64,000 nucleotides of DNA from an uncultured virus (IMG/VR IMGVR_UViG_3300044609_001498) (IMGVR_UViG_3300044609_001498); one strand, 5' to 3'; positions 1-37,953 are shown, counted from the first letter of the stretch. Made by a program: numbers and translations. Notes: a model not told the origin generated them from the sequence alone.

Positions 1-1
1 A

Positions 2-905: not shown

Positions 906-929
906 AATTTATTTGTTTTTTTGGTTTGT

Positions 930-2843: not shown

Positions 2844-2893
2844 CTTCCCCAAGATTTTTTTTTATTTATCTTTGGAGAGTGAAAATTATTGCT

Positions 2894-3055: not shown

Positions 3056-3058
3056 GTT

Positions 3059-3865: not shown

Positions 3866-3868
3866 ACT

Positions 3869-4809: not shown

Positions 4810-5102
4810 TCTCTTACAATATATTCTGAGTTTTGAGTTTTGAATCTGACAAATTCTAATAGTCCTTCTTCATTCTTTTTTTCTTCAATAATTTCTGTGA
4901 CTTTAGTAGTCAACCAATAATCTTGATTGGAATAAGATCTTGCGGTAACTGAACCTACTAAAAGAGAACATCCGACTACGGGTTTGTGATCTACAATTTC
5001 TTTAAAGGTTCCATCTTCATTCCAAGCTATTGCTTGAATGCGACCACCCTGCTCTTTAAATTCTTCTCTACCGTCTGGGTGTATTTTGATAAGTTTTGGC
5101 AT
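4806..5102 (-). CDS. hypothetical phage protein
   Basis: ORF with 4-nt overlap to the next gene; YWLTT..FKTQNSEY. Confidence 0.7.
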   Translation of the reverse strand: MPKLIKIHPDGREEFKEQGGRIQAIAWNEDGTFKEIVDHKPVVGCSLLVGSVTARSYSNQDYWLTTKVTEIIEEKKNEEGLLEFVRFKTQNSEYIVRE

Positions 5103-5156
5103 ATTATAAATTTAATTAAAAAAATCGAAAACAAAAAATAGAGCCCTTCTATTTGT

Positions 5157-5903
5157 TTAATCTAATTTTTCTCCGCAGCTAGGGCAGAATTTCCAAGTTT
5201 GTTTTTTAACACGAGTTCCACAATCAGAACAATAATTTCTAATCTTAGAAACTTCCACTGGTTTAGTAGATTCAGGTAAAATTTTCCACTCTGAACTCTG
5301 AAAATAAAAAGTATCAAAATTCATGTTACTAACTCCAAATGACTGATCAGAGGATTCTCCCATTTCTACTCTACCGGTTTCTAGGCTACATGTATTAGAA
5401 ACTGTAGTTGTGAATGATCCAGCTACCGAGGTTGCTATATTAGCATTTGAAAAAAACTGGATGTTGTTGGGGTCTGGGTGAGTAACTGGAATATACGGAG
5501 TTCCTGTTCCGTATGTGTAAGTTGGTTTGTATGTCCAATCTATTCCAGTAGACCATTTAGGAACTGTAAGTTGTTGTTCTCTAAAAAATTCAACCCTTAT
5601 CAGCCCATTGTTCGCAATAGCTGATGCCGTCTCGATTGAAGCATCGACTTTATAAGTCTCAAAGAGAAACTTATTGTTAGTGTCGATAAATCTGTCAAGA
5701 AAGAATCTTTGCCCAGGTTTTAGAATTAAACCTGAATTGCTAATGAGATTTCCGTTTAGCCAAATTTTGGCGAGAACATTTACAGTTTCACCATTGAATA
5801 GTTCGATTTCAAAATTACTGCCATCTTTCAGATAGACTGATTTTTCGTACGAACGAAGACGATTTCGGTTGAGCGCAATATGCGCAGAGGTGTTTGATTT
5901 CAT
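5157..5903 (-). CDS. hypothetical protein with C-terminal zinc ribbon
   Basis: C-terminal CSDC..FCPSCG; beta-rich N-terminal domain. Confidence 0.75.
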   Translation of the reverse strand: MKSNTSAHIALNRNRLRSYEKSVYLKDGSNFEIELFNGETVNVLAKIWLNGNLISNSGLILKPGQRFFLDRFIDTNNKFLFETYKVDASIETASAIANNGLIRVEFFREQQLTVPKWSTGIDWTYKPTYTYGTGTPYIPVTHPDPNNIQFFSNANIATSVAGSFTTTVSNTCSLETGRVEMGESSDQSFGVSNMNFDTFYFQSSEWKILPESTKPVEVSKIRNYCSDCGTRVKKQTWKFCPSCGEKLD

Positions 5904-6018
5904 ATTTTTTCTTTTTGTTAATCTTTTTGTAGCTTGTTGGAGCTACTCTAGGGCTGTAAACCCAAGACAAACATTAGAAGGGCTCTATGTAGTTTATATA
6001 TTAGAGAAAGAAAAAGGT

Positions 6019-6630
6019 TTAGGGAGAAGTAGGATAGAGTTTAAAGACAATAGTATTGGGTGATGGATTGTCAGTAACGACTGCCCAGAACATTATGTTT
6101 CCTACGCTAGGATCAGGTACATATCTAATACTATAAGGTGCTAATGGATCAGGTCCAATAGCTGGTAAGTTGTAAGGTGCTCCTAAACCCGTTAAATAGA
6201 TTTGTTCAAATATTTTTGTATATGTAGGAGTACTTCCACTCGTACCAGAAGATCCCGAAGATCCACTTGTCCCGGATCCACTAGTTCCAGATGATCCCGA
6301 AGTTCCAGGTGCTCCGGTTGCTCCCGAAGTCCCAGAAGTTCCGTTTGTACCAGAAGTGCCGTTTGTACCGGAAGTACCGTTAGTTCCGCTAGTTCCGCTA
6401 GTTCCTGAAGAACCTGAAGTTCCTGCTATATTAGATCTAACAAATTTAGTTCCATCCCATTGTAAAACTTCTCCCACAGAAATACCTGTCAAATCTACAT
6501 CTACTAGATCGCCAACAGAGTCTTCTCCTTTAATTAGATTGGAGTCTAACCAATCTGAGTAATCATCAGCAAGAGGTTTATCTCCTGTTTCGAATCTTTG
6601 TTTTAGAAAACTTCTAGATCTTTGGGACAT
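6019..6630 (-). CDS. Gly-Ser/Thr triplet-repeat fibre-like protein
   Basis: GTS/GSS/GTN repeats after an LVDVDL..GEVLQWDG fibre-type motif; late-type promoter upstream. Confidence 0.7.
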   Translation of the reverse strand: MSQRSRSFLKQRFETGDKPLADDYSDWLDSNLIKGEDSVGDLVDVDLTGISVGEVLQWDGTKFVRSNIAGTSGSSGTSGTSGTNGTSGTNGTSGTNGTSGTSGATGAPGTSGSSGTSGSGTSGSSGSSGTSGSTPTYTKIFEQIYLTGLGAPYNLPAIGPDPLAPYSIRYVPDPSVGNIMFWAVVTDNPSPNTIVFKLYPTSP

Positions 6631-6659
6631 TGTGTAGATTTTTTTTATATATCTACAGT

Positions 6660-8219
6660 CTAGTCTTTGCGGTTATCTATGTGAATAATAACTTGTTTGT
6701 AGTGTTCTAAAAAATGTTCATTCCACAAATCCCATTTGATGTTGACATTATCTATAGAATAGACTTCATGATTTGGGAATTCTTTTAAAAATACATCTCT
6801 AAAAAATCTGAACTTTTCAACATAATCATGATTATGTAGACGTATATGCCACTCGCCTGTTATTTTTTTCACATTATTTTTAATCCATTCTAGATTTTCC
6901 TGTGTAAAAATATCAAATTCTCCTCCTTCACAGTCTACTTTCAAAAAATCAATTTTTTCTATACTGTATAATTCTATGAATTTTTGAAATGTAATAGCTT
7001 CCATTGAGCTTTCTCCGCCGAATAGATGGTCATTTTCTACTGTGGAATTTACACTAGATATGCCTTTATTGATAGGAGTTGCGGGACTACCAATGATATT
7101 CTTAACTAAGATTTTAAATTCTCTTTCGCTAGGCTCAAAACAAAAAACATGTTTGGGTTTTTTGTGTAGAATTGAGTATGTAAAAGGTCCTACACTGGCT
7201 CCGATGTCGACTACTATATCATCTTTTTCTACTTCAAAAAATCTTTCATAACATTTGTCGATGAATATTTCTTTGGTTAATGATTCTTTGTGATATTGGC
7301 CCATGTGTTTATGAGAACCGTCAGGGTAAATGTGATATACATTAGAAGGTTCATCCATCCAACCCCATTCAAAATTTTCTATGTTCATAGGTTTGTTTTT
7401 TAGTATTATATCTACTAATTCGTTTATTTCTTTTTTATAATCATTATATGTCCTAGGACAATGCGCATCGATGTAATATCCTGATTTTAGTTTGTCAATG
7501 TCATAAATACCGTCTCTCTTCTGAGACTCTATTAAAATAGAATTTAGATTTGCTGTAGGAAAATTATGTCTATCGATTCTTTTTTCCGATTTCCACGGAG
7601 TTGTCCAATTTCTAACTAATTTAACAACATTTATTCCGTGATTAGTATTATCTACTTTGTCACCGAAATATAATTCATCTGTCCCCCACCCCAAATTAAG
7701 TTTTTGTAATGCATCAACATATTCTTCAAAACTCCTATCAGTGTTTAATACTTTATTGAAATTTTTTCCTTTGCCTATAATATAACAAATTGGATATCTG
7801 TTTTCACATGATTCATTGTGATTTTGGCACTCAATTCTTTCTAAATCATAAGCCTTGGAATCCATAATAATTAAAGACTCATCGTCAATGTTTTCTATTT
7901 GCTTTACGAAATAATCTTCGCTTATCATCAACATATCAATATCTGCGGTTAAGCAAATTTCATCAGGGAAGTATTTTGTGGCATACATACGAACCACCTG
8001 ACTTTGAAATGAAGTTATAATATCTGAGCAATTATTTTTGTTTATCTTTTTAACTATTCCTCCATGTGCATCTTTGTAAAAGTCGCTATCTTCATTCGTA
8101 ATGTGAAATAATACGGGTTCTGCTTTTAAAACTTCTCTAACCAATTTAGCCTGTATTGGCCAAAAATCAGCATATATTGGATTATCGTCTAACCCAAAAA
8201 TTACTTTACTTATTTTCAT
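6660..8219 (-). CDS. glycosyltransferase-like N-terminal domain fused to FkbM-family methyltransferase
   Basis: N-terminal ADIDM DxD motif and WGTDE; C-terminal VDIGASVG..FEP..KVDCEGGE. Confidence 0.75.
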   Translation of the reverse strand: MKISKVIFGLDDNPIYADFWPIQAKLVREVLKAEPVLFHITNEDSDFYKDAHGGIVKKINKNNCSDIITSFQSQVVRMYATKYFPDEICLTADIDMLMISEDYFVKQIENIDDESLIIMDSKAYDLERIECQNHNESCENRYPICYIIGKGKNFNKVLNTDRSFEEYVDALQKLNLGWGTDELYFGDKVDNTNHGINVVKLVRNWTTPWKSEKRIDRHNFPTANLNSILIESQKRDGIYDIDKLKSGYYIDAHCPRTYNDYKKEINELVDIILKNKPMNIENFEWGWMDEPSNVYHIYPDGSHKHMGQYHKESLTKEIFIDKCYERFFEVEKDDIVVDIGASVGPFTYSILHKKPKHVFCFEPSEREFKILVKNIIGSPATPINKGISSVNSTVENDHLFGGESSMEAITFQKFIELYSIEKIDFLKVDCEGGEFDIFTQENLEWIKNNVKKITGEWHIRLHNHDYVEKFRFFRDVFLKEFPNHEVYSIDNVNIKWDLWNEHFLEHYKQVIIHIDNRKD

Positions 8220-8815
8220 TGCTTTTTAACTTTAATAGTATCAAAACCACTTTCAATTTTATAATAACCGTGATTTCTTAATGAATCCATAATACTTTGA
8301 AATTCATTTTCATCGGTCAAAGAATTATATTCAAATAGTATTTCGTTAGGTAATATTGAGTTGGACGATAAAATATTTTGAATTATTTTACAGTCGTGTC
8401 CTTCAGTATCTATTTTTAATAAATAGACAGAAGTTATGTCGTAAATATCTATCAATGTAGACCAAGTAATACATTTACACTTAGAAGTTTTGTATATTGT
8501 AGATAAATTATGTTCTGCTAACTCTTTAAACGCTGTAGGGTGAGGATTTATAATAGAATTACAACCTCTTAACCAATGGGGGAGATCATATTTTTTTATA
8601 TCATCTGGAGATATCCAAAAAACGTCAGTTTCAAAGTTTGAATCGCTAATCGCGCAATTAACTTTAATGACATTGTCATTATTCGGTAAGTTATCTAAAT
8701 AATATTTTAGAGGTTCTATAGATATTCCAATTTTACCTGTTGTAGTTTCTAGCAGAGTATCAAAATCGCTAGTTCCTATTTCTATAAAGTCATACTTCAT
8801 TTGTTCTTTATCCAA
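8216..8815 (-). CDS. FkbM-family methyltransferase
   Basis: FIEIG, SIEP, NCAIS, LKIDTEGHD. Confidence 0.8.
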   Translation of the reverse strand: MDKEQMKYDFIEIGTSDFDTLLETTTGKIGISIEPLKYYLDNLPNNDNVIKVNCAISDSNFETDVFWISPDDIKKYDLPHWLRGCNSIINPHPTAFKELAEHNLSTIYKTSKCKCITWSTLIDIYDITSVYLLKIDTEGHDCKIIQNILSSNSILPNEILFEYNSLTDENEFQSIMDSLRNHGYYKIESGFDTIKVKKQ

Positions 8816-9735
8816 TTTTTTTTGATGTATTTTTCTTTATCAATAATACTAAAATCATATGAACGTATTAAAGCGTCATTAAGAAATATTTTTATTTTAT
8901 TGATTTCTTCAGTTCTACCGAGGGTGCGAGTCATCCAAGTTCCTTTGTTGTGATTGCTAAAAACTTTTACAGTATCATCGTTTATTATTACGCTAATATC
9001 GTTTATTCCAGTATGATTAAAATCAAAAAGGACAAAATTGTTTCCATCAGAAACTACTGTTATCCAGTCTTCTTCGTTTGTAGTATATTTATTTGTTTCT
9101 ATTTTTCCGCTTAATAAAGAAGAAACACCTTTACAGAAAGCTTTTTCTTCTCTTATCATTTTAAAATTAAAAGATTCAAGAATATTATCTTCTGATTCTT
9201 CTAAAAATAAATAGAAAATATTATCGCTAAGATCAAACCAATTTTCTTTGATTTTTTTAACATTAAAAGAAATTAACGGAAAGGAAGTATGTAAATCATG
9301 ATGTTCATACCATACCACTGAATATTCTTCTAATATTTGAGAGTTCTCTCTAAATTCAGTATCATCTATTATAAGACCATCATACTCTAAAAAATGAACC
9401 TTTTCGTATCCAAAAGATTTAGCTGCAGAAAGGCCATTTAAAATGAGAGATCCAGCTGCTATTAAATGATTAAAGTTTTTAAATTCGGTTGTTGAAATTT
9501 CCAGAGATTCGTTTCCAAACCACCATTTGATTTTTTGATCTAAATCTGTCAATAAAACATTCTTTTTCTGAAAGATAAAATAGTCAGATTTTTCAACTAC
9601 TTCATCTGAAATAGAACTGTGTGAAGAGATCATCACATCAAAATGTTCTCTGTCTATACTTTCTAAAAGATCATCTAATATAGAAATTCTTTCTGCGTCT
9701 GGCGTATATGCTGTTATAAGAATCAGATCCTTCAT
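8797..9735 (-). CDS. putative GT-A-like protein (local paralog family)
   Basis: KDLILITAY..DVMISSH..GYEKVHFLEYD shared with neighbouring genes. Confidence 0.55.
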   Translation of the reverse strand: MKDLILITAYTPDAERISILDDLLESIDREHFDVMISSHSSISDEVVEKSDYFIFQKKNVLLTDLDQKIKWWFGNESLEISTTEFKNFNHLIAAGSLILNGLSAAKSFGYEKVHFLEYDGLIIDDTEFRENSQILEEYSVVWYEHHDLHTSFPLISFNVKKIKENWFDLSDNIFYLFLEESEDNILESFNFKMIREEKAFCKGVSSLLSGKIETNKYTTNEEDWITVVSDGNNFVLFDFNHTGINDISVIINDDTVKVFSNHNKGTWMTRTLGRTEEINKIKIFLNDALIRSYDFSIIDKEKYIKKNWIKNK

Positions 9736-9975
9736 TTAATGTTGTATATTTTTAGGATATTTTTTCCTTAACCATCCAATAAACTCCCCATTTTCATCAT
9801 ATTCATTATCATAATAAGGTAATTTATCATTATATAGGATCTGCTTTAAGTATGGTTTTTACAAGGTCAGCTTGGATAGGCCAAAAGTCAGCGTAAGTCG
9901 GATTATCATCCATACTAAAAATTACTTTATCAATTTTCATTTTTTAACTTTAATAGTATCAAATCCCTTTCAATT
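9736..9975 (-). pseudogene. remnant: truncated copy of the 8216/6660 gene junction plus an orphan 3' end
   Basis: 9830-9940 encodes MKIDKVIFSMDDNPTYADFWPIQADLVKTILKADPI*, matching the N-terminus of 6660..8219; the preceding bases match the end of 8216..8815. Confidence 0.8.
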
Positions 9976-10992
9976 TCATTCATTCTGATAGTAAATTCTA
10001 TTTAGTTCTTTGAAAAGATCTATATTATTTTCATTTAATTCTATATGTCTTTTCATTTTATTGTTAATCAAAATTGTGATATTCTTTATATCATTTGGAT
10101 GACCTAGTGTTTTAATAGACCACTGAAATTTTTCTATTTTATTAAAATTTACTATTTTTTCATTATTGACTATTACAACTACATCTGTAGGTTTTTCTGA
10201 AGCTTCATTCCAAACTAAAAATCTAATTTCATCTGAAGAATGATCATAAAAAGGAATTGCCCACTGCATTTCAAATTCGCCTTTATGAAAATCCACCATT
10301 CTAAGTATATTTCCGTTCTTCATTATCAAATTGTGATCTTTAAAGAGAACTTTTCTATTTTCAGAAGTGTATATTCGGTGAGTTCTTACTTCTGTAGTTT
10401 TAGAAGCACTATTTTCAATTTCATTTAAAATTTCTTCTCTGTCAAACTTAAATATGCTTTCTGGCATACTTGATATTTTCGCTGCATGAAAATTACCGAT
10501 TCCATATTCTAAGGTATCAAAAACTGAATCATTTTTGGTATATAGAATAGCATCATATTCATCTAATGCACGAGAATTATTGTAAAATTCTGTAAAATCT
10601 TGGAAGTATGCATCATATTCAATAAATTGTACTTTTTCATATCCAAATGCTTTAGACATTGCATATCCCGTAATTAGTTGTTTATGCAGAGTTAAGTAAG
10701 TATTTCCACTCCCAAAAAAGATAGATTGAATTCTCATAGTATCATTAGGAGAAAACCACGGCTCATTCTGATATATCCAATCTTTCAACAGCTCATTGTC
10801 TTCATCATATATAGACCAGTTTACTCTTTCTTGAACGTCTGTGCTTATTGGAGTGTGACTTATTACCATAAGATCAAAATCCTTTCTAACTGGTTGTAGA
10901 CCTATCACTAAATCAAGAAGAATTGCTCTTCTGTCTTCGGATGGACAATGAGCAGTTATAATTATAAGATCTTTTTTCTTCTGCATATACAT
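9976..10992 (-). CDS. putative GT-A-like protein (local paralog family)
   Basis: KDLIIITAH..DLMVISH..GYEKVQFIEYD. Confidence 0.55.
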   Translation of the reverse strand: MYMQKKKDLIIITAHCPSEDRRAILLDLVIGLQPVRKDFDLMVISHTPISTDVQERVNWSIYDEDNELLKDWIYQNEPWFSPNDTMRIQSIFFGSGNTYLTLHKQLITGYAMSKAFGYEKVQFIEYDAYFQDFTEFYNNSRALDEYDAILYTKNDSVFDTLEYGIGNFHAAKISSMPESIFKFDREEILNEIENSASKTTEVRTHRIYTSENRKVLFKDHNLIMKNGNILRMVDFHKGEFEMQWAIPFYDHSSDEIRFLVWNEASEKPTDVVVIVNNEKIVNFNKIEKFQWSIKTLGHPNDIKNITILINNKMKRHIELNENNIDLFKELNRIYYQNE

Positions 10993-11972
10993 TATCTGTT
11001 ATAATACACTTGATTCATTGAGATTTTTTCGTATCTATCAGTAAAGTCTACCACTTTATTGTTATAAGTAAAGATTATGCTCCTAATATTTGTAGAACTG
11101 TAAGGAAATTCAATAATTTCCCATTCTTTAATATTTTTTATAAATTTTTCTCCATTGATTTCAATTTCAATTTCAATTTCATGATTAAAGTCATAAAGAC
11201 AAATTCTTAAATTATCAGTTAAATCAATCCAACCTAAAGTATCATGCTCATGTTGAGTTTTATCATTTTTTGATAAAAACATTTTAAAATCATCGAACAT
11301 TGAATAATTAAAAAAATCGAAATTTTCATAGTAATATATTCTATCTTTTACACAATGATTTGAAATTTTGATTGGAAATTTCTTAGTCCATTTTGAAGCT
11401 TCATTTTCTGCAAATCCATAATCATTTCGATATGAATTGAGATCTATTTCTTTCTCTATACTTTCCATTATTTCTCTATCAAAAATCATAAAGTGTAAAG
11501 TAGTTTCCCAAAGTTTTGTAGGATCTCTAGGATCTCTTCTAGGGTGTATTAAATTTACTTCTGAACCTATCAATTCACTTTCGATAATTTCATCAATTTC
11601 AACATCATAGATCATATGATAGAAAATATCATAATCGAATGTCAGCGCAATTTGTGATAATTTTTTTGTTTGATATAATGCAGACCATCCATAATCTGGT
11701 AAACATTCATGAAACATAATAGATCTACCGTCTTCTAAAGGTCTTCTTCTCCAGTGAGTAAATGCTTTATCAGGCCATTTTAATACAGGATTTTCTTTAG
11801 TATAAAAGAAAAAGTCACATAAATCTATAATATCATTTTTAATAGGAATGAAATTTGGTCCGAGTGCCATTACATCTACTCCCAGACTCTTGATTTTAAT
11901 GATAGTTTCCCTTAAAACATTTTGCTTTTCTTCTGTATCACAAAAAGTACTTATAAGCGCGATCTTTTTCAT
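10992..11972 (-). CDS. putative GT-A-like protein (local paralog family, divergent)
   Basis: KIALISTFCDTEEK..DYDIFYHMIYD. Confidence 0.5.
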   Translation of the reverse strand: MKKIALISTFCDTEEKQNVLRETIIKIKSLGVDVMALGPNFIPIKNDIIDLCDFFFYTKENPVLKWPDKAFTHWRRRPLEDGRSIMFHECLPDYGWSALYQTKKLSQIALTFDYDIFYHMIYDVEIDEIIESELIGSEVNLIHPRRDPRDPTKLWETTLHFMIFDREIMESIEKEIDLNSYRNDYGFAENEASKWTKKFPIKISNHCVKDRIYYYENFDFFNYSMFDDFKMFLSKNDKTQHEHDTLGWIDLTDNLRICLYDFNHEIEIEIEINGEKFIKNIKEWEIIEFPYSSTNIRSIIFTYNNKVVDFTDRYEKISMNQVYYNR

Positions 11973-12005
11973 AATTTTTCTTGAACTCGATAAAATTAAA
12001 TTCTT

Positions 12006-12617
12006 TCATATTTTTAATTTTTTTGCTGGCAACCCTACATAAATTCCAGGCTCCATTACATTTTTAACTAAACCACAGTTCAAACCCAGAGTCACATCAT
12101 CACAAACTTTTAATTTTTCTCTAATTGATGAATTTGATCCCATATATAACCGGTTTCCCGCTGTTACATTACCTGATATAATTGCTCCGGGCATCATGCT
12201 TAAATAGTCACCTACTACAGTATCGTGACCGATATGATTACCTCTGTTTAAGATTGCATGATTTCCAAGATGCACATTTGTGGTAATTATCGAAAAAGCT
12301 CCGATAAAAGAACCTTCTCCGATACTGAAATTTCCAAAATCAAAAACAATAGCAGCATTATGAATAAAGGTAAAAAATTCAGTTTCGGCAGGTAGCCTTT
12401 TAACCATCATTTCTCTATCTTTAGGATCTGCGACTGCTACCATCATCATCATTTCTTCTGGATTGAATTCTGAAATCGGCTTAGCTAGATCATTCGCATA
12501 CTCATCATCTACATAGAACTGTAATTCTAGATTTTCTTTCTCAATGATGTCTTTCATCTGAAAAGAAACCTCTCTAGCATGGCCACCGAATCCATATATT
12601 GCCAGACTCTTACTCAT
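12006..12617 (-). CDS. NeuD/PglD/PerB-family sugar acetyltransferase
   Basis: IYGFGGHAREV N-terminus, hexapeptide repeats, IGHD, YVGLPAK; likely start 12617. Confidence 0.9.
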   Translation of the reverse strand: MSKSLAIYGFGGHAREVSFQMKDIIEKENLELQFYVDDEYANDLAKPISEFNPEEMMMMVAVADPKDREMMVKRLPAETEFFTFIHNAAIVFDFGNFSIGEGSFIGAFSIITTNVHLGNHAILNRGNHIGHDTVVGDYLSMMPGAIISGNVTAGNRLYMGSNSSIREKLKVCDDVTLGLNCGLVKNVMEPGIYVGLPAKKLKI

Positions 12618-13257
12618 CTTCTCTGTTTGCTTTTGTATAAATCTCAAATTTAGAGAGATCTGGATATGGAAGCTCTAGATCAGGATTGTGCTTCTTTGTT
12701 CCATCTGTGTTGTAGAATTGGTTAATCAAGAGGAGACCTCGAGCTGCTAGTTCAGGCATCATATAGAAATTCCAACCCAACATATCGAAGTGATCATCAT
12801 GATAAGAAGTTTCCCTTCGACCTGAATAACGTGCTCTCTTGAACCACAGATATGCATCGTAGTTATCAGTTAGAATAGCTCCACCCTTTGACAACTTAAA
12901 ATGTTTGTAGGGACCTGTAAAAGAAATACACATATGAGTTCCAGGTTTGTACATATCAGCAGTAAAAGCCAGAGCCGAATCCCAAACATTAGTAGGTTCA
13001 AGCTGATATGCACCTTTAATTTTTTTTCCTTTCACGGGAGTAAAGTTAACCTTTGCTCCTGCGTGAATAATTTCACAAGGAACTGATGGGTAAGTTCGGG
13101 AAGGGATTGTAATTTCTATTCCTTTTACTCCCTCGTACATAAGAGCAAGAAAAAGAGCATTAGACTGATTATCTACAGTTATTGCGAATTTTGCTCCTGT
13201 ATACTCAGCAAGTTTTTGTTCAAAATCTTCAGTGATTTTGTAAATTCCGTTAGCCAT
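12610..13257 (-). CDS. DegT/DnrJ/EryC1/StrS-family aminotransferase (short form)
   Basis: FEQKLAEYTGAKFAI, DSA, SFTGPYKHF..GGAILTDN, GWNFYM. Confidence 0.85.
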   Translation of the reverse strand: MANGIYKITEDFEQKLAEYTGAKFAITVDNQSNALFLALMYEGVKGIEITIPSRTYPSVPCEIIHAGAKVNFTPVKGKKIKGAYQLEPTNVWDSALAFTADMYKPGTHMCISFTGPYKHFKLSKGGAILTDNYDAYLWFKRARYSGRRETSYHDDHFDMLGWNFYMMPELAARGLLLINQFYNTDGTKKHNPDLELPYPDLSKFEIYTKANREDE

Positions 13258-13260
13258 TTT

Positions 13261-16200
13261 TTATAAAAAGTTTTTTAGTTGATAGATTACATCTTCGGGT
13301 TGAATAGATTTGCTACATTCAAATTGTCTCGTAGTTCCTTTCTGATCTGGACACCAATTCCAATCACCTGCATCTAATCTAAATCTATTGAAACATCCAT
13401 TGCAGACATTTGGATTCCAAATTCTGAGAAGATTTTCATCTTCAAATTCAGTATGTGGTTTACTGAATCCAGAGATCATTACTACTTTAGTTCCTGATGC
13501 CCAGGCCAACCAACTTAAACCTGATCCAACTCCAATAAATGCATCTGCATGAGCCAGATAATTAATTCGATCGCTTAGAGGAAAATTACCAGATCTATCG
13601 ATAATTCCTTCAGGCGCCGCATTGCCCATATAAGTTCCAGTTTCTTTGGAAATAAGGACTACTTCGTATCCTTCAGATTTCAAATAGTCTACTACAGTTT
13701 GCCATCCATGTGGATGATTCCAATATTTAGCTTGTGCGGTTGCATGGATTCCAATGCAAATATATTTTCCTTCAATTGGTCTTCCAGTTTGGGGCTTGAC
13801 TAATCTTGGTTTGTACGTCTTTAAATCTAATCCTAAAATATCTGATGCAGCTTGTTGCATAGGAATATCTCTAAAATGGCACGGGTGCATTGAAGTATTA
13901 TAAGTATCAGAATCTCTTTCATAGAACCATCCGATTTTATATCCTGCATAAATATTAGGTACTCCAACTCCTCTTTCTACAAACTGGATGCTAGGATATT
14001 CAGATCTGAAAAGATCATTTTTAAAAGTACTGACTATTAATTTGCAATTATGCTTCTTCTGGAATTCTTCTATTGGTGCAAACCAAGCGATAGTATCTCC
14101 TAAAGATTCAGATTCTAAAGAAATAAATACTCTCTTTTCATTTAGATCGAAATGATGTTCGAATATTACTTTGTCTTTACTTAAGTCAGTGACTTTTACC
14201 AACCAATCTACATAGTATTCTCTGCTACATCCTACCCAACAGTTATTTTCGATATTATGTGTATAAACAGCTTTGTTCTCTTTTTTATCGATAAATTCTA
14301 CTCGATATTTTCCTTTCTTTACTCGAGTAGTTAGTTCTAACCAAGGGCCTTTAACAAAATGAAATGAAATAATCTCTGAATCTTCTATTAGGGATTCTGA
14401 TTCAAATTCTTCAGATGTTTTTAGTCTTCCGGGATTATCTAGAGAAACTATCAACCGATTCTTTGTCTTCAGATCCTCTACTCTGATTTCTTCGGGTATG
14501 CTTGCTTCTCTTTCTAACTTAACAAATTTCTGAGTGCTAAAATCCAAGTCTAAATATTTGTCACCTTGTAAAATTCTAAAACTCGATTCAGATCCAGGCT
14601 TTCCGCTTAGATAAAGGAAAAGATCTCCAGATTGATTGATACAGGGAAGAACTATTGAACCTGACAAAGAAGTAACTTCAAAAGAAGAAAGAAGATCAAA
14701 TTTACTATGACCTTGTACTTCAGATGTTTGCAAAATTGATCGAGTATAAGGTGAAGAATTTACCAGTTTTGTAATAACATTTTCTATAGAAGAGCTTTCT
14801 GGAGAATAATTTACATATTCTTCTGGTGTGTTAATCTTAAATAGAAGATTCATGAATTTTTGAACATCTACCGAAAAAAGACCGGTGTTTATGAGATTGT
14901 CTTTCCAATGAGTACCCACAAAAAAGTCACTACTCTCTTCGACTTGTTCTTCTAGAGTCTTTAGAGTCTTTTCATCAAAAAGAAGATAATCATAATTCAC
15001 AAAATATATTCTCTCGAATCCTTCAACAAACGCAAATCTTAGTGCTCTTTTTAGAAGATCATAAACTGCATATCCATAGTCATTTCTTTGTGTATGAGTT
15101 AATTCGAAGGCCTCTCCTTTAAGCAAAAGCCGAGGAAAGGGTTTCCTATTACCCCACTCTTCAAGAGTAAAGACAGGATTCTCTTTAACTACCAGGGTAT
15201 AATTTGAATCTACATTGGTAGGGATATGACTCATTACTAGAGTTTTATATCCTTGACGTTTGATCTCATGATTACATATTTTTAGATATGCTTCTCTCTC
15301 CTCGTTATCGGGGTGCGATAGAATAACTACAAGATCTTTAGTCCCGGACTTTCCAGTTGCGTCTTCTTGATTCATTAAGAGCTTCAAGTATTCGAAGCCG
15401 GTTTTTGCAACTCTTGACCATGAAAATTCTTCTCTGATACGAAGTACTTGTTCCATCGCTTCAGCTTTCTTTTCATTCCAATTCTCGTAAGTTTCTCTTA
15501 ATGCTCTCTTTAGATCATCATAGTCTGGCTCACAATAGTCACCTGGTAAGTATCCTTGAAACCAAGACTTACCAGTACCTAGTTCAGCTTTACGCATTTC
15601 TGTGTACTGAACTGGAGTTCCGATACCTTCTGCAAATTCTAGCTGAGCTCCGTAATTTGAATAGATGACTGGTGTTCCAGCTGCAATTGCTTCTGCTAAT
15701 GGAATATTCCAACCTTCACTTCGAGCACATGTTACAAGAACATGTCCTGTCTTTACAAAATTTGCATAATCAGATCTAGAAGGAAAGTGTTTTATCTTTA
15801 TCCTATCGTCCTGTAAGCCATGAAATTCTAATCTCTCTTCGGTAGAATTCATTCCATCAATAGAGAACAAGTTATCAGCACTTAAAATAAAGTCTACCTC
15901 TTCTTCGGGTTTGAATTCTTCTAGAAAAGACTTGAGAATTTCAGGTACCGCTTTTCTATAATCCCATCTACCGAAGAAAAGAAACTTAAATCTATTATCA
16001 GAATAATCTGGTAGAATTTCAGTAACTGTACTATTATGAAACTCCTCATCAATTCCTTCTGGGACTACAAATATTCGGTGTAGGGGATATCCCTGTTCTA
16101 GCAACATTTCTCTGTGCCATTTTGTAGGAACAAAGATGTGAGTAAAATTATTCTGAATTGCTCTGTAGAAATTGTCTTCTAAGCGAGTTGTCTCCCATAC

Positions 16201-16602
16201 AAGATATGCAATTCTGATCTTTACTCTGGGATCGGGCTTTTCATAATAGTAATAGTGATTAGTGTCCATCAACACAATATCAATATCTGGTACAAATTCG
16301 CTCTCTCCTCTAAAATCTTTAAAGCTTAGATGAGACCAGGCTTCTACGTGCTGCATTGGAAAATCTTCAAAACTTCCTCCACCCCCTTCTTCCAATTCGT
16401 GTATACCTGAAGTATTTAAACTGATAGTTTCTAGAATTTGATAATCTCTATCGACGAGGTGACTTTCGGGTTTATCATCCCACGTGTAATTTCGAACTCG
16501 TAAATCTGTGTGGTATGAAAGATTTCTAAAAAATCCTCTAGCATGTGCGGCAAATCCAGTTTTGCCAATATAACATGTATGTGCTCTTATTTTTATTTCC
16601 AT
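13261..16602 (-). CDS. GT4 glycosyltransferase + paralog domain + Aah/TibC-type (autotransporter) O-heptosyltransferase fusion
   Basis: GT4: FGRWDYRK..SEGWNIPLAEA; C-terminal FHFVKGP, SLGDTIAWF..FQKKHNC, FIGVGSGLSWLAW, Cys cluster CNGC..WNWCP..FECSK. Confidence 0.85.
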   Translation of the reverse strand: MEIKIRAHTCYIGKTGFAAHARGFFRNLSYHTDLRVRNYTWDDKPESHLVDRDYQILETISLNTSGIHELEEGGGGSFEDFPMQHVEAWSHLSFKDFRGESEFVPDIDIVLMDTNHYYYYEKPDPRVKIRIAYLVWETTRLEDNFYRAIQNNFTHIFVPTKWHREMLLEQGYPLHRIFVVPEGIDEEFHNSTVTEILPDYSDNRFKFLFFGRWDYRKAVPEILKSFLEEFKPEEEVDFILSADNLFSIDGMNSTEERLEFHGLQDDRIKIKHFPSRSDYANFVKTGHVLVTCARSEGWNIPLAEAIAAGTPVIYSNYGAQLEFAEGIGTPVQYTEMRKAELGTGKSWFQGYLPGDYCEPDYDDLKRALRETYENWNEKKAEAMEQVLRIREEFSWSRVAKTGFEYLKLLMNQEDATGKSGTKDLVVILSHPDNEEREAYLKICNHEIKRQGYKTLVMSHIPTNVDSNYTLVVKENPVFTLEEWGNRKPFPRLLLKGEAFELTHTQRNDYGYAVYDLLKRALRFAFVEGFERIYFVNYDYLLFDEKTLKTLEEQVEESSDFFVGTHWKDNLINTGLFSVDVQKFMNLLFKINTPEEYVNYSPESSSIENVITKLVNSSPYTRSILQTSEVQGHSKFDLLSSFEVTSLSGSIVLPCINQSGDLFLYLSGKPGSESSFRILQGDKYLDLDFSTQKFVKLEREASIPEEIRVEDLKTKNRLIVSLDNPGRLKTSEEFESESLIEDSEIISFHFVKGPWLELTTRVKKGKYRVEFIDKKENKAVYTHNIENNCWVGCSREYYVDWLVKVTDLSKDKVIFEHHFDLNEKRVFISLESESLGDTIAWFAPIEEFQKKHNCKLIVSTFKNDLFRSEYPSIQFVERGVGVPNIYAGYKIGWFYERDSDTYNTSMHPCHFRDIPMQQAASDILGLDLKTYKPRLVKPQTGRPIEGKYICIGIHATAQAKYWNHPHGWQTVVDYLKSEGYEVVLISKETGTYMGNAAPEGIIDRSGNFPLSDRINYLAHADAFIGVGSGLSWLAWASGTKVVMISGFSKPHTEFEDENLLRIWNPNVCNGCFNRFRLDAGDWNWCPDQKGTTRQFECSKSIQPEDVIYQLKNFL

Positions 16603-16883
16603 TTATCGTATCTTAATTTCGAGATCCAATCGTGAACTTCTGTACACAATTCATATTCTTCCATTTCTTCGATAGCTGGAAGATTTGTTTCGAGAGTATC
16701 TAAATAATTTTCTTTAGTGCAATAAATATCAAGGCCATCTGGTTCGATAGTGGCCAAAGTTACTTTATCGACTTTGCTTCTTAAAGCTTCGCATATTTTC
16801 TTACACACGTTAATGTGCATATCATCTGAGTAGCGATGAACAAGTTCCTCTACGCTCTCATCATCCCTTCTTTGAAGAATCAT
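16593..16883 (-). CDS. hypothetical protein
   Basis: Likely start MILQRR at 16883; C-terminal EEYELC motif. Confidence 0.6.
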   Translation of the reverse strand: MILQRRDDESVEELVHRYSDDMHINVCKKICEALRSKVDKVTLATIEPDGLDIYCTKENYLDTLETNLPAIEEMEEYELCTEVHDWISKLRYDKWK

Positions 16884-17193
16884 TGTACTGATCGTAATCG
16901 AGTTTTTGGTAAATTGGTTCTTTCTTCGGGCTTTCAATCTTTCCGTGTAAGATATCAAGCAAATAATCTATTCCTTCGTCCATGTCATTTCCACGGTAAG
17001 AAAAGATCATTTTTGTCTGATCAGCTTTACCTCGATTAGATGCTTCAAAACATGAAGTATGGATTCCATATCTTCTATGATCTGCAATCGTAATTCGAAA
17101 GTGTCTATTTTTCCATTTGATATGGACTGCGGAGGCTTTAGTATCTGAGGGTAGATCTCTGATAAAGGTTGGATTCACAAATTCATCTTCCAT
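16861..17193 (-). CDS. hypothetical protein
   Basis: ORF preceded by AAAC-N17-TATAAT. Confidence 0.65.
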   Translation of the reverse strand: MEDEFVNPTFIRDLPSDTKASAVHIKWKNRHFRITIADHRRYGIHTSCFEASNRGKADQTKMIFSYRGNDMDEGIDYLLDILHGKIESPKKEPIYQKLDYDQYNDSSKKG

Positions 17194-17197
17194 AAGT

Positions 17198-17224
17198 ATT
17201 ATATAAGAAAGGGAAGAAGAGTTT
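17198..17224 (-). promoter_or_regulatory. phage promoter motif AAAC-N17-TAWAA(T/A/C), one of nine copies
   Basis: Exact 17-nt spacing also at 19614-19640, 20879-20905, 25444-25470, 28667-28693, 43736-43762, 45440-45466, 53081-53107 and 63467-63493, each just upstream of a start codon. Confidence 0.75.
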
Positions 17225-17915
17225 AAGATCTTACTCCAAGTTTAGTTCTAATAGACTGAAGAGAAGATTTTATGATTTGATTAACTCGAGTACGAGTTAA
17301 ACCATATCTTTCTGAAATAAGATCTTTGGATAGTTCGTATTCTCTATCAATTCCATAATATGCAAGAACAATTTCTCTATCTCTTTCATTTATACAATCA
17401 ATACACTTTTTAACGAAGAATTTTGCATATTCGAGATTTTCTCCTTTTGTGTATTCGCATTCAGCTGGAAAGAAGTTTTCATTTGACCTATCATCGTCTT
17501 CGCTAACATTGGTATCAAGACTGATTGATTTTTCAATTTCCACCTTTCCTAATATTTTCCTCATGTCATTGATAACATTCATCGGAAGTCTAACTTGTCT
17601 TCCTTTTTGAGATATTGCGAAAAGAATAGCTTGTCTTATCCACCATGAAGCATAGGTAGAAAATCTGTTTCCTTTGTCTCCATCGTAACGAGTTGCAGCT
17701 TCGATTAAACCTAGATTTCCTTCTGCTACGATGTCTTCAAAATCCAAACCTGCATTTTGATATGATTGAGCTATCTTAAGAACTAATCTAAGATTGTGCT
17801 TAATCAAAATTTCTAGAGAAGCTTTATCGCCCTTTTTAATTTCTCTAGATAAGATTACTTCTTCTTCATAAGAAAGTAATCTAATTTTCCTGATTTCTTT
17901 GTAATAATTTTCCAT
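17223..17915 (-). CDS. RpoD/SigA-like sigma-70 factor
   Basis: Region 1.2 LLSYEEE; region 2 NLRLVLKIA..EGNLGLIEAA..RFSTYASWWIRQAI; region 4 HTH LTRTRVNQI. Confidence 0.95.
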   Translation of the reverse strand: MENYYKEIRKIRLLSYEEEVILSREIKKGDKASLEILIKHNLRLVLKIAQSYQNAGLDFEDIVAEGNLGLIEAATRYDGDKGNRFSTYASWWIRQAILFAISQKGRQVRLPMNVINDMRKILGKVEIEKSISLDTNVSEDDDRSNENFFPAECEYTKGENLEYAKFFVKKCIDCINERDREIVLAYYGIDREYELSKDLISERYGLTRTRVNQIIKSSLQSIRTKLGVRS

Positions 17916-17943
17916 TGTATTTTAGGTAAGTTAAATATTAATT

Positions 17944-17951
17944 CAAAAATA
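17944..17951 (-). promoter_or_regulatory. Bacteroidota housekeeping -7 promoter element (TAnnTTTG)
   Basis: TATTTTTG on the minus strand about 30 nt upstream of the sigma gene start, in an AT-rich gap after a terminator. Confidence 0.5.
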
Positions 17952-18044
17952 ATAAAAGTTTTAGAAAAGTAAATAGGTAATATTAACATGTTTTAAACAT
18001 TTTTATTTAATGTATAAAAATTAATACATTTGAGCTTCTGAGAC

Positions 18045-18070
18045 AAAAAAGGAGCCTCTTTTGAGGCTCC
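18045..18070 (-). terminator. intrinsic terminator
   Basis: GGAGCCTC-AAAA-GAGGCTCC followed by T6 on the minus strand. Confidence 0.9.
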
Positions 18071-18131
18071 TGTGCATGAAAAGCTAGATCAGGGGAAGAT
18101 ACTTACAGCTATAACATGCAATATTTCTTCG

Positions 18132-19598
18132 TTATTTGACTACGTTTGCCATCAAAGTAGCCTTAACACCCGTTTCTTTATGTATAACATAAGCATGAAG
18201 AGCTCTAGTTGAACCTTCATACCCATGATTATGATGCCATCTATCGCTGCCAGATAGGCTTGGCATTTGGAATACTCTAACTCCATTATAATCTTTTACT
18301 ACTTCATGATGTAAATGTCCGGTAAAGAAGACTTTGTTCGAACACTTAGACCATTCTTCCGGAGCCTCATTTGCCATCAACATTGGTAAATCTGAATGTT
18401 TTGCCCCATCACCGTGAGTGAATCCCATTAAAGTTTTTCCGTAGGTAAAATACTGTCTAAAACGATGAGACTCTAAAACATTAACATCGTCTGCATTCCG
18501 ATAGTATGCACCCAAGAATTGTAAAAGAGCATGTGATAATTTAAAGTCGTGGTTTCCTGCAGCTAATACAATTTCCACGTTAGCCACCTGTCTCATGATA
18601 TCGATAAATTCTACCATCAACTGGTTTCCTTCTACCATTATCTGAACATAAGTTCCATCACAGTCTTGAGGAGTACCTTTTGTGGTAGTTCCACCCAGAG
18701 TATCAATATGAAAAAAGTCAGAGCCTACTGGAATAATAACCTTTTCTACACTATACTTGATAATATCTGGAATCAGGCTTCTTGTCTTTTCGAGTAAAAG
18801 CTCTTTAGCAATCTGGCGATTATATTGCTCCATTACTTCACCTGACCATGAATATTTTCCATAGTGTAGATCGTAGGGAGAAATAACTACTGCATGAGGT
18901 TCACCTTCTGGAAGCTTTAGCTTTTCAACTTTGTAGCTTAAAAGATAGTCTTTCATTTTTTCTATGAAAGGATTCACCTTTAATCCCTGAAAAGCCCACC
19001 AATTAGAAGCTGCATCTTGAAGCATTTTTTCTTCTTTTCGAGTGTACTTTTGAAAATAGGAAAATTTTCTCTTCTGTAGAAGATCGTTAACCATTTCGTC
19101 CAAGTCTTTGTTCATCAATTCTTCCTCGGTAACTGGCTCTGAATCGTGAGTCCAGCCGAAAGTGGTTTTTATATGAACAAAAATATTTCTGGGTATTTCA
19201 AAGTTCCTACAGATTTCATTGATTGTTTCTGGCGATCCATCCATGTTTGAATATCTCGCTTTCATATCTCTAACAATCGTACCAGTAAATCTGTAAGGCT
19301 TATTTTTGATATGTACTATGTAGAGATCTTTAATCTCATCATAATAATAACTTTGTTCATGTTGGTATCTATCTGCGAAAGTGCTTTCTTCTTTTTCAAG
19401 CTCTTCAGAAATCTCCTGAAACGGAGCTGATTCAACAGCTTTGTTGATAAATGTAGAAATCGCTCTTCTGAATGAATCCATGTTAGAAATCTCTAGCGAG
19501 AAATCTTCGATAAGCTTTCGCGAGATTTGCGAGTAATTAAGTCCCTGAGAATAGAATTCCAGAATTTCTTCTGAATATTTTCTAATAATATCCTGCAT
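18132..19598 (-). CDS. metallophosphoesterase with N-terminal HTH-like region
   Basis: DLHYG, GSDFFH, GNHD, THGD, GHLHH. Confidence 0.85.
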   Translation of the reverse strand: MQDIIRKYSEEILEFYSQGLNYSQISRKLIEDFSLEISNMDSFRRAISTFINKAVESAPFQEISEELEKEESTFADRYQHEQSYYYDEIKDLYIVHIKNKPYRFTGTIVRDMKARYSNMDGSPETINEICRNFEIPRNIFVHIKTTFGWTHDSEPVTEEELMNKDLDEMVNDLLQKRKFSYFQKYTRKEEKMLQDAASNWWAFQGLKVNPFIEKMKDYLLSYKVEKLKLPEGEPHAVVISPYDLHYGKYSWSGEVMEQYNRQIAKELLLEKTRSLIPDIIKYSVEKVIIPVGSDFFHIDTLGGTTTKGTPQDCDGTYVQIMVEGNQLMVEFIDIMRQVANVEIVLAAGNHDFKLSHALLQFLGAYYRNADDVNVLESHRFRQYFTYGKTLMGFTHGDGAKHSDLPMLMANEAPEEWSKCSNKVFFTGHLHHEVVKDYNGVRVFQMPSLSGSDRWHHNHGYEGSTRALHAYVIHKETGVKATLMANVVK

Positions 19599-19604
19599 CT
19601 AATA

Positions 19605-19892
19605 TTATTTATTTTTATATAAAAGTTTCTTAAAAAGTTTAAGAATCAAAGAAAATGGATAAGTAATTGCTCTAGATAAAAGAGCATTTGAAACTTCTCT
19701 TTTGTAGTTTTTTATTTGTCTGTTGTACTCAATTGGAGATATTTTTCTTTCAGAAAATTCCTTTAGAGTTTCTAAATTGTGATTATCAACTTCTTTAACT
19801 ATTTTTTCTGCTATTTCGTTTCTCTCGCTCTTCATTACCCGGAAAAAGTAAAATATTACAAGAGAGAGATATGCCAATATAAAGATCATCAT
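19605..19892 (-). CDS. small membrane protein
   Basis: N-terminal hydrophobic helix; ATGA overlap. Confidence 0.6.
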   Translation of the reverse strand: MMIFILAYLSLVIFYFFRVMKSERNEIAEKIVKEVDNHNLETLKEFSERKISPIEYNRQIKNYKREVSNALLSRAITYPFSLILKLFKKLLYKNK

Positions 19893-20668
19893 TTAAGTTG
19901 AACGTAGTAGTTTATCATCTCTGACATATCAGTAACTCCTCGCTTTCTAACAACTCTAGAAGCGCAATCATTTGCAAATTTAATAGACTTCTTGATGTCA
20001 ACTGTTTTTGTATAAGCCGCAACCAGGGCAGAAATAAAGGTATCTCCGGCTCCTGCTACATCTCTAACTTCAGCAGGTTTAGTAGGAAAGATTCTGTCAT
20101 TCCAAGAAGCCCCCTCAGATCCCAGCGTAACAATCATTCTATTTTTAATTTCTTTTAGAATATCTATATTATGGGCAGAATTTAGAGATTCAGATTTATT
20201 AACTTTAACCCAAGATGCGAACTTAATCCATTCACCAAACGGTTTCTTTGTGTCAATAAAACTGCATTTAGCCATTCTGAGAATATAATCTATTGCTTCT
20301 TCGTGCAAGAATCCTTTGTTATAATCAGATACTATCACAGCATCATATTTTTCGATTTCTGCATTGCTCAAATCATTCATCGAAACTTCTTCTGCTCTAT
20401 CATTCTGATCAACACGCAAAAGAATATAGTTTGAATTTTTTTCAACGTACCGAGTCTTCGTGATTTGATTTTTATTTGAGATAAAATCTACACTAAAAAC
20501 TCCCAGACTTTCGAGATTTTCTACCACATTTCCAGCCATTCCTCTATTAGAGGAAGTGTGAGTAGGAGTAAAAACTGGAGTAGGAGCTTCGGGATTTAGT
20601 CTTTTACACTCTCCATACACAAATTCATCGGTGCATGAATCACCGATCACTAAAATACGCTTTTTCAC
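19889..20668 (-). CDS. hldE: HldE/RfaE heptose-7-phosphate kinase domain (PfkB family)
   Basis: ILVIGD..D..G.C.RLNPEAPTPV, SDYNKG, DVAGAGDTF; no adenylyltransferase domain. Confidence 0.85.
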   Translation of the reverse strand: MKKRILVIGDSCTDEFVYGECKRLNPEAPTPVFTPTHTSSNRGMAGNVVENLESLGVFSVDFISNKNQITKTRYVEKNSNYILLRVDQNDRAEEVSMNDLSNAEIEKYDAVIVSDYNKGFLHEEAIDYILRMAKCSFIDTKKPFGEWIKFASWVKVNKSESLNSAHNIDILKEIKNRMIVTLGSEGASWNDRIFPTKPAEVRDVAGAGDTFISALVAAYTKTVDIKKSIKFANDCASRVVRKRGVTDMSEMINYYVQLK

Positions 20669-25439: not shown

Positions 25440-25472
25440 AAATATTATAGTTAGAAACTCAGATAAGTTTTC

Positions 25473-26057: not shown

Positions 26058-26089
26058 TTTGGAATTTATTTTATATATCTCACCAACAA

Positions 26090-37931: not shown

Positions 37932-37953
37932 TTTATTATTTATTATTTATTTA

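Follow-up and report, generated by a model that had tools for sequence, protein, structure and literature searches.

TibC and Aah of Escherichia coli are the closest described counterparts of the enzyme considered here, and TibC is a dodecameric, ring-forming enzyme that acts on beta-helical adhesins. Sugars are also O-linked to hydroxy residues of the proline-poor Gly-X-Thr/Ser repeats of BclA, from the Bacillus anthracis exosporium, and of giant-virus collagens, and giant viruses encode both the collagen-like protein and the transferases, which belong to other families and handle other sugars; to our knowledge, neither case involves heptose or an enzyme of the Aah/TibC (BAHT) family. Phage virions can be glycosylated as well: in mycobacteriophages, siphoviruses of actinobacteria, capsid and tail-tube subunits are reported to carry glycans at their C-termini (Freeman et al. 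2023, as cited in the accessible part of PMC12619734). Here we analyzed a 64,000-nucleotide (nt) stretch of DNA from an uncultured virus (IMG/VR IMGVR_UViG_3300044609_001498), referred to as the window, in which an open reading frame (ORF) on the minus strand at 13261-16602 encodes a 1113-amino-acid (aa) protein in which a GT4 domain, a middle domain, and an Aah/TibC-type domain are fused. We see an even chance that this gene belongs to a protein O-glycosylation system with which the phage modifies its own fibres. In its first step, the BAHT domain would use ADP-heptose, the most likely donor, to attach an initial heptose to Ser/Thr hydroxyls on a phage protein that is rod-shaped and repetitive.

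The fusion is composed of the following parts, with the GT4 family matches spanning residues ~110-410.

15331 to 16602, minus strand: GT4 (GT-B) N-terminal domain (PF00534, E value of 8e-9; PF13692; PF13439; phrog_2170, E 7e-32)
14380 to 15330, minus strand: middle domain, fusion residues 425-741, modelled as a GT-A fold followed by a low-confidence beta-sandwich
13264 to 14379, minus strand: Aah/TibC-type (BAHT) O-heptosyltransferase domain, fusion residues 742-1113 (TIGR04414; TibC, 4rap)

A reading made earlier from the sequence alone (the sequence-only reading) had described the protein as a fusion of GT4, unknown and Aah/TibC-like domains retaining a Cys cluster and had named an LPS (lipopolysaccharide) GT9 enzyme as the competing assignment. 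The curated equivalog hidden Markov model for autotransporter heptosyltransferases, TIGR04414 (hepto_Aah_TibC), bore this description out with 342.1 bits against a cut-off of 200 (E 3.7e-102; fusion residues 742-1110, model positions 9-372 of 374). The models of LPS heptosyltransferases reached only about 20 bits on the same protein (18-21 bits, with 21 for LPS heptosyltransferase I). The C-terminal domain is thus not an LPS GT9 enzyme; the curated model and every catalytic and metal-binding residue checked place it in the Aah/TibC family. Among solved structures, the fusion matched 4rap and 4rb4 only, both of which are TibC (4rap: E 4.5e-62, fusion residues 761-1101). Residues of TibC, with roles taken from the accessible part of PMC4358343, were mapped by hand from the printed alignment of the two proteins, in which all four Cys residues of the cluster align to TibC.

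TibC D110 (catalytic base, position marked by the D110A crystal variant): fusion D836
TibC T226 and K230 (beta-phosphate contacts): fusion T955 and K959
TibC R286 (reads adenine): fusion R1012
TibC W305 (heptose O4 contact): fusion W1031
TibC C339, C342, C358, and C370 (iron finger): fusion C1067, C1070, C1084, and C1096, predicted to bind iron
TibC F368 (thumb contact): fusion F1094
TibC F265-V266 (thumb tip): fusion Y991-M992, in a hairpin three residues shorter than that of TibC
TibC P300, equivalent to Aah S294 (stereo-selectivity): fusion G1026

In an alignment of 140 domains, consisting of the window domain, 19 phage representatives, and 120 database homologues, the catalytic Asp, the Lys, the Trp, and one Cys were invariant (140/140), the other three Cys were present in 139 domains, and the position of T226 was occupied by Thr or Ser. 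The thumb tip reads Tyr-Met in 16 of the 20 phage representatives.

The enzyme is not confined to this phage. Full BAHT domains were found in 35 other IMG/VR loci at 41-53% identity, forming 19 clusters at 90% identity, and their architectures were assigned by Pfam in 12 of the 35 loci and by length and BLAST coverage in the remainder.

GT4-BAHT: 5 clusters
GT4-middle-BAHT-methyltransferase: 4 clusters
methyltransferase-middle-BAHT: 8 clusters
stand-alone BAHT: 2 clusters (2 of the 35 loci)

The cultured Microcystis phage Mel-JY01 encodes a comparable fusion of 1226 aa (86% coverage, 37% identity) annotated as 'methyltransferase FkbM', and no paper on this phage was found in the literature searched. 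Similarity to the fusion is confined to its C-terminal domain in three uncultured megaphage records and to its GT4 part in 79 Streptomyces phages. In the protein database, long forms (652-2000 aa) made up 3616 clusters at E <= 1e-30 and shorter ones (204-651 aa) made up 4768 clusters at E <= 1e-10, and a GT4 Pfam domain was counted by hand in 105 of the best 120 long homologues listed. Among 25 records picked by portal protein alone, the enzyme was present in 14, including five of the six that were at least 90% complete. Our full-text literature search, which was not exhaustive in coverage, returned no paper on a phage-encoded BAHT enzyme or on heptosylated virions.

The best candidates for the acceptor would be proline-free Gly-Ser/Thr-Ser collagen-like fibres, two of which are encoded in the window.

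6019 to 6630, minus strand: collagen-like Gly-Thr/Ser-Ser protein of 203 aa with a tail-fibre-type N-terminus, candidate acceptor (PF01391, 31.9 bits; PHROG tail fibre and virion structural families)
49456 to 50520, minus strand: collagen-like Gly-Ser/Thr-Ser protein of 354 aa, candidate acceptor (PF01391, 89.5 bits; phrog_5073 tail fibre, E 2e-31)

The gathering cut-off of PF01391 is 27.2 bits. The first protein contains 17 Gly-X-Y triplets, X being Thr in 12 and Ser in 3 and Y being Ser in 11, and the second contains 56, with Ser or Thr at X and mostly Ser at Y; both are predicted to form triple helices. Of the three repeat proteins named in the sequence-only reading, these two are thus collagen-like, whereas the third (50529-51086) is no repeat protein, having only a short Ser-rich C-terminal tail. 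A further candidate lies beyond the window in the nearest record, G001, which comprises 160,937 bp (~50% complete according to CheckV) and covers window positions 2686-64000. G001 is identical to the window over 2686-20000, the covered part of a query with positions 1-20000, and 93% of the sampled 31-mers of the window are common to both. The product of its open reading frame at 2-3277, at least 1091 aa long, is a collagen-like fibre in which 310 uninterrupted triplets were counted and which ends in a Peptidase_S74 intramolecular chaperone domain; the triplet composition shifts along this protein from Gly-Ser/Thr-Ser to Gly-Ala/Asn-Gln. G001 extends ~97 kb past the window and encodes T4-type core functions (gp23 capsid, gp20 portal, gp15, gp32, sheath, terminase, and clamp loader), and the window is part of a T4-like jumbo phage. 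The host is probably a member of Bacteroidota, because the protein encoded at 930-2852 (minus strand) combines a signal peptide and a cohesin domain with a type IX secretion sorting domain (Por_Secre_tail; TIGR04183, 30.1 bits, cut-off 23), which also suggests that the phage exposes this protein at the surface of its host. In the prokaryote collection, the enzyme was found at two loci only, one of them a 254-kb contig binned as 'uncultured Bacteroidetes'.

Comparison with relatives supports the view that the enzyme travels together with Gly-Ser/Thr-Ser collagen-like fibre genes. A collagen-like ORF of at least 12 triplets, with Ser or Thr at X and mostly Ser (or Asn, Asp, or Ala) at Y, occurs within 10 kb of the BAHT gene in 15 of 20 clusters, the window's own included; the remaining five comprise three clusters whose loci span at most 9.7 kb, with none, L036 with none, and L018 with a marginal run of nine triplets. 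Across all 34 records, PF01391 was detected in 20 of the 23 with the enzyme and 4 of the 11 without it (Fisher p 0.005), and among records of at least 100 kb in 14/14 versus 1/4 (Fisher p 0.005), values that are indicative only and overstate independence, as the compared records are related and mostly fragments. The co-occurrence anticipated between the enzyme and Gly-Ser-Ser repeat genes was found, by presence as well as by adjacency. No collagen match was obtained in G008 (429 kb), the one near-complete genome that lacks the enzyme. A strict DNA pattern of six Gly-[Ser/Thr]-[Ser/Thr] triplets had given 13/23 versus 2/11 and was replaced by PF01391; it undercounts, because it missed the Gly-Thr-Asp/Ser fibre (at least 1859 aa) of the relative G021, a fibre that also ruled out the idea of a GmhA-bearing clade lacking collagen-like genes. 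In this complete 373-kb relative, a row of genes within 14 kb of the genome end and beside portal-region genes (L137, G021:C1:1-20000) encodes this fibre, an APS-kinase-like protein, a small nucleotidyltransferase, a GT9-like protein, a paralogue of the middle domain, and a GT4-BAHT-FkbM fusion.

As a further part of the proposed mechanism, three loci would supply or boost the activated donor.

19889 to 20668, minus strand: short PfkB kinase of 259 aa resembling the HldE kinase domain, candidate heptose-7-phosphate 1-kinase (TIGR02198; phrog_8133, E 7e-81)
30612 to 31013, minus strand: small cytidylyl/adenylyltransferase-like protein of 133 aa, candidate sugar-1-phosphate nucleotidyltransferase (PF01467, E 6.9e-20)
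3869 to 4809, minus strand: cupin gene (3869-4246) overlapping by 4 nt a HAD-type phosphatase gene (4243-4809), candidates for further donor-synthesis steps

The operon structure of related phages supports a link between the kinase and the TibC-like enzyme. Both L018 and L036 encode, in this order, a GT4-methyltransferase, a stand-alone BAHT enzyme, a nucleotidyltransferase of 127-128 aa, and a kinase of 247-251 aa. The closest large relative, G010, has a BAHT fusion of 1118 aa that scored 327 bits; in this record, a cupin gene 78% identical in product to that of the window (88/113) directly precedes a nucleotidyltransferase gene (best match rfaE_dom_II, 87 bits), which is followed by the kinase gene. 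Within 4 kb of the cupin in 79 other viral loci, we found the nucleotidyltransferase in 57, the kinase in 53, BAHT in 9, and the window-type HAD protein in 2. The 133-aa protein is the sole nucleotidyltransferase homologue found in the window's phage, with only 23-25% identity to the cassette enzymes of G010 and of cyanophage P-SSM2. A GmhA homologue (TIGR00441, ~188 bits in each) accompanies BAHT in G019, G021-G023, and G026, and the complete relatives among them, G021-G023 (343-373 kb), carry GmhA, an HldE kinase domain, and the BAHT fusion; in G021, NF001628 scored 238.7 bits and the full-length HldE kinase domain 301.5 bits. A role of the window's cupin in place of GmhA, as a sedoheptulose-7-phosphate isomerase, is no more than a possibility. 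Leads toward an isomerase are weak (Pfam Lyx_isomer, E 2.8e-5 over 29 residues; PDB 7nzo, E 0.44), and the idea loses ground because, next to its cupin, P-SSM2 encodes a distinct protein annotated as 'phosphoheptose isomerase'.

Once the first sugar is in place, the fused GT4 and GT-A-fold domains, together with three GT-A-fold paralogues, would extend it, and FkbM-type enzymes would methylate it. The middle domain matched no Pfam or NCBIfam family (residues ~425-741), its family profile found no PDB sequence, and as a query on its own it retrieved only two relatives (174-555 aa). Its AlphaFold2 model, built on the 18-sequence alignment A1 with moderate confidence (mean pLDDT 73.5), superimposed over residues 1-219 on mannosylglycerate synthase (Z 15.7, rmsd 3.3 Å, 168 residues), Chlorella virus hyaluronan synthase (Z 14.6), and the nucleotidyltransferases GlmU and IspD (Z ~13.6); the C-terminal ~90 residues formed a low-confidence beta-sandwich. 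All 18 sequences share one invariant Asp, D114 of the domain, which is part of a 'YD' motif. As the middle domain models as a GT-A fold, the 1113-aa protein is most likely a union of three transferases, and four copies of an unnamed GT-A-fold family most likely occur in the island, a fold that by itself does not distinguish a glycosyltransferase from a nucleotidyltransferase for the middle domain and its paralogues. The genes between the fusion gene and the first collagen-like gene are listed below.

8797 to 9735, 9976 to 10992, and 10992 to 11972, minus strand: three stand-alone paralogues of the middle domain (BLASTP, alignment A1)
6660 to 8815, minus strand: two FkbM-type methyltransferase genes, the first at 6660-8219 (PF05050, E 1.6e-8 and 9.4e-10; TIGR01444)
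12006 to 12647, minus strand: NeuD/PglB/VioB-type sugar N-acetyltransferase (TIGR03570, 140.1 bits, below the cut-off of 160.8)
12610 to 13257, minus strand: short DegT-type aminotransferase of 215 aa (PF01041, E 5.6e-16, profile positions 24-96 of 360 only)

The paralogues and the middle domain align in BLASTP over their first ~130 residues (E from 1.7e-31, between two paralogues, to 5e-3); the three stand-alone proteins matched no Pfam, NCBIfam, or PHROG family, and their atlas neighbours are viral hypothetical proteins. The N-terminal ~320-aa domain of the 6660-8219 protein gave weak atlas leads to GT8 and nucleotide-diphospho-sugar transferases (score 0.86, TM 0.54-0.60) and no PDB match by sequence. 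The 240-nt gap at 9736-9975 (minus strand) holds a short ORF that repeats the N-terminus of this protein (MKI.KVIF..DDNP.YADFWPIQA...) and then ends in a stop, a remnant of a gene duplicated or recombined within the island.

All genes of the window, which has ~34% G+C, lie on the minus strand, and three signals bear on the transcription of the island and its surroundings.

18050 to 18071, minus strand: terminator (9 pairs, 6 G-C, T run; terminator scan)
17944 to 17951, minus strand: TAnnTTTG element, 28 nt upstream of the sigma-factor gene
6646 to 6653, minus strand: late-promoter-like motif GATATATA(AAAAAA), 23 nt upstream of the collagen-like gene 6019-6630

Because the terminator is followed by TAnnTTTG, which we take to be the Bacteroidota -7 promoter element, the arrangement suggests one transcription unit running from ~17950 through the fusion gene. 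The island described in the sequence-only reading is not continuous: genes for a sigma factor and an Mre11-like nuclease, along with small ORFs, occupy 16593-19892, and the terminator separates the kinase gene (19889) from the transferase gene. The GATATATA motif, mostly followed by an A run, occurs in 24 sense copies and one antisense copy in 163.6 kb. Seventeen of the 24 lie 20-34 nt ahead of a called start codon, mostly in front of head and tail genes such as those for the prohead protease, the tail sheath, and a gp15-like protein, and an 18th lies 102 nt ahead of the major capsid gene; the window copies are at 6646-6653, 26072-26079, 47426-47433, 53592-53599, and 57543-57550, and the others are in the G001 part. 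The motif probably serves this phage lineage as its late promoter, and since it is common to head and tail genes, the 6019-6630 gene is probably expressed together with virion genes. The transferase island contains no such motif. The timing of transcription does not separate the readings weighed below.

A number of observations weigh against a heptosylation system aimed at the phage's own fibres, beginning with the donor. The kinase, which the sequence-only reading had called HldE, is indeed a PfkB kinase with TIGR02198 as its best NCBIfam match, but its 146.9 bits fall below the cut-off of 345, and the protein is shorter than the 315-position model. The adenylyltransferase sought for the same pathway has a candidate in the 133-aa protein, which scored 62.6 bits with TIGR02199 (rfaE_dom_II; cut-off 181.5) and slightly more, 71.1 bits, as a glycerol-3-phosphate cytidylyltransferase (TIGR01518), also below cut-off. 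As for gmhA and gmhB, GmhA (TIGR00441) had no match in G001, about half of the genome, and the HAD protein (HAD_SAK_2, E 1.6e-21) matched no NCBIfam model, GmhB included, at E <= 0.001. The kinase and the cupin stand side by side in 31 T4-like cyanophage records (counted by hand), and the cyanophages with the kinase-nucleotidyltransferase-cupin cassette gave no BAHT match, so that the product of the cassette is not tied to the TibC-like enzyme. The adenine-reading Arg is retained in only 49 of the 140 aligned domains and, among the 20 phage-locus rows, in that of the window only. With these findings in view, and given Gly at the stereo-determining position, it is possible, though not probable, that the transferase uses a donor other than ADP-heptose and that the kinase, nucleotidyltransferase, and cupin make a different activated sugar without GmhA, a reading that could be combined with any acceptor. 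ADP-heptose is favoured by the window domain itself, which keeps all heptose and beta-phosphate contact residues of TibC as well as the adenine-reading Arg, and by the complete relatives that combine GmhA and BAHT with a near-canonical HldE kinase domain. The HldE kinase domain occurs at E <= 1e-30 in 129 of 201 genomes of the phylum of the Bacteroidetes-labelled metagenome-assembled genome, the presumed host phylum, and the host may therefore supply ADP-heptose as well.

The acceptor is subject to similar reservations. The canonical acceptor repeat of BAHT enzymes, TIGR04415, had no match at E <= 1 in the 160,937 bp of G001, and an acceptor must therefore be non-canonical, as this strand-loop-strand repeat is missing. 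The two loci with the BAHT-nucleotidyltransferase-kinase operon are also those in which a collagen-like ORF within 10 kb is absent (L036) or reduced to nine triplets (L018), and there the operon adjoins a gene for a protein of 2266-2472 aa with 21-22% Ser+Thr and almost no collagen triplets. The sugar might thus be placed on another Ser/Thr-rich or beta-helical structural protein, or on the type IX cargo protein of 930-2852, instead of on a collagen-like repeat. TibC recognizes a folded beta-helix (PMC4358343, accessible part), a fold common in phage fibres and spikes, and the window does encode that secreted cohesin-domain protein. We nevertheless find such an acceptor quite unlikely, given that the nearest repetitive Ser/Thr-rich gene is collagen-like in most clusters and that no beta-helix candidate was identified in the window.

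Even the adjacency to fibre genes is partly expected, because in aquatic T4-like phages transferase genes generally sit in the tail-fibre hypervariable region (PMC7029224, accessible part). The same source reads the rfaE and glycosyltransferase genes of that region as tools for remodelling the host surface, and in the literature the 'LPS gene' cassette of cyanophages is taken to modify the host O-chain. Applied to the window, this would mean that the transferases modify host LPS or O-chains, or surface proteins such as adhesins and type IX cargo, thereby blocking superinfection or altering the surface and leaving the fibres untouched. The island is apparently read from a host-type promoter-like element after a terminator and not from the late motif, and heptose-containing host glycans are plausible, since many genomes of the presumed host phylum carry the HldE kinase domain. 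Nonetheless, the domain belongs to a protein-modifying family and not to the LPS heptosyltransferases (342 versus 21 bits), and host remodelling leaves the collagen link (20/23 versus 4/11 records; 15/20 clusters) unexplained. We know of no host acceptor and consider this alternative unlikely. For the glycosylation of the phage's own fibres, the analysis establishes family membership, conserved catalytic residues, domain folds, linkage of the genes in relatives, and co-occurrence with collagen-like genes, while the identification of the acceptor and of the sugar and the sequence of steps are inferences.

The window contains further sugar genes, namely, three Methyltransf_24, two GT2, GT10-like, DUF5672, and GT47-like genes. 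The segments 36011-41449 and 58311-59330 (minus strand) encode a GDP-mannose 4,6-dehydratase, a GDP-fucose synthase, the GT10-like (fucosyltransferase-type) protein, the two GT2 proteins, the DUF5672 protein, and a UDP-galactopyranose mutase, and the phage is probably able to make GDP-fucose and UDP-galactofuranose. A divergent thymidylate-synthase-like gene at 62040-62912 (63 bits, cut-off 327) lies beside a nucleotide-kinase-like gene, a pairing typical of base-hypermodifying phages. Part of the sugar machinery, conceivably including the TibC-like enzyme, could accordingly glycosylate hydroxymethylated pyrimidines in phage DNA. We regard this as very improbable: it does not explain the link to fibre genes, and we know of no BAHT family member that acts on DNA. 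Work on viral transferases that hypermodify DNA is cited in the accessible part of PMC12619734. The thymidylate-synthase-like gene of the 62040-63462 segment (minus strand) may encode a pyrimidine hydroxymethylase, and a separate true ThyA (432 aa, with a large insertion) is encoded at 21850-23148 (minus strand). Other minus-strand genes include two adjacent RimK-type ATP-grasp ligase genes (55071-57525), the upstream one of which (56035-57525) is preceded by the late-promoter-like motif, and a chaperone/protease set at 24423-28662 and 45465-45836 consisting of a ClpB-like two-ring AAA+ protein (670 aa), ClpP, and Hsp20. The window has no tRNA genes.

A more specific version of fibre glycosylation is offered tentatively, its chances being well short of even. 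In a large clade of aquatic phages, a ring-forming TibC-type enzyme would processively O-heptosylate the Ser/Thr residues of proline-free collagen-like triple helices, with the sugars stabilizing them as hydroxyproline does animal collagen; the GT4 and GT-A domains on the same dodecamer would serve as an assembly line for a methylated oligosaccharide, and the donor would come from a GmhA-bypassing cassette of cupin, short kinase, HAD phosphatase, and nucleotidyltransferase. If fibre glycosylation holds true, many large aquatic phages would coat their fibres in self-made heptose-based glycans, and a new interpretation would be needed for 'LPS genes' in T4-like phages, which are usually taken to serve host-surface modification. 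The substrates of TibC and Aah would widen from autotransporter beta-helices to another rod-shaped repeat protein, and the stable folding of proline-free Gly-Ser-Ser collagens would have a possible explanation.

Among known systems, the 'LPS gene' cluster of P-SSM2 (PSSM2_309-313) and its equivalents in T4-like cyanophages and pelagimyophages share the donor cassette, with 36-46% identity to the window's kinase and 43-51% to its cupin, and in P-SSM2 both genes stand beside a nucleotidyltransferase gene between tail-fibre genes. In those cyanophages, unlike in the window phage, nothing matched the TibC-like domain, and their cassette is known from annotation only. The proposed system resembles the virion O-glycosylation of mycobacteriophages, as far as the accessible source describes it, in that phage-encoded transferases would act on the phage's own structural proteins; it differs in the enzyme family, in belonging to a T4-like myovirus, and in the acceptor, which would be a fibre. 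The closest likeness is to TibC-TibA and Aah-AIDA-I of E. coli (TIGR04414; PDB 4RAP/4RB4; PMC4358343, accessible part), which represent the same family at ~45% identity over 340 residues, as estimated from the printed alignment. Like TibC, the fusion keeps the catalytic Asp, the donor-binding Thr, Lys, Arg, and Trp, the four-Cys iron finger, and the N-terminal barrel region (from model position 9), whereas its thumb hairpin is three residues shorter, with Tyr-Met for Phe-Val, and its stereo-determinant is Gly. In contrast to TibC and Aah, no autotransporter or strand-loop-strand target repeat was found in the 161 kb of G001, and the enzyme is phage encoded and fused behind two other domains, most likely both transferases. 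TibC and Aah add single heptoses, while the fused and neighbouring transferases and methyltransferases of the window suggest a longer, methylated glycan.

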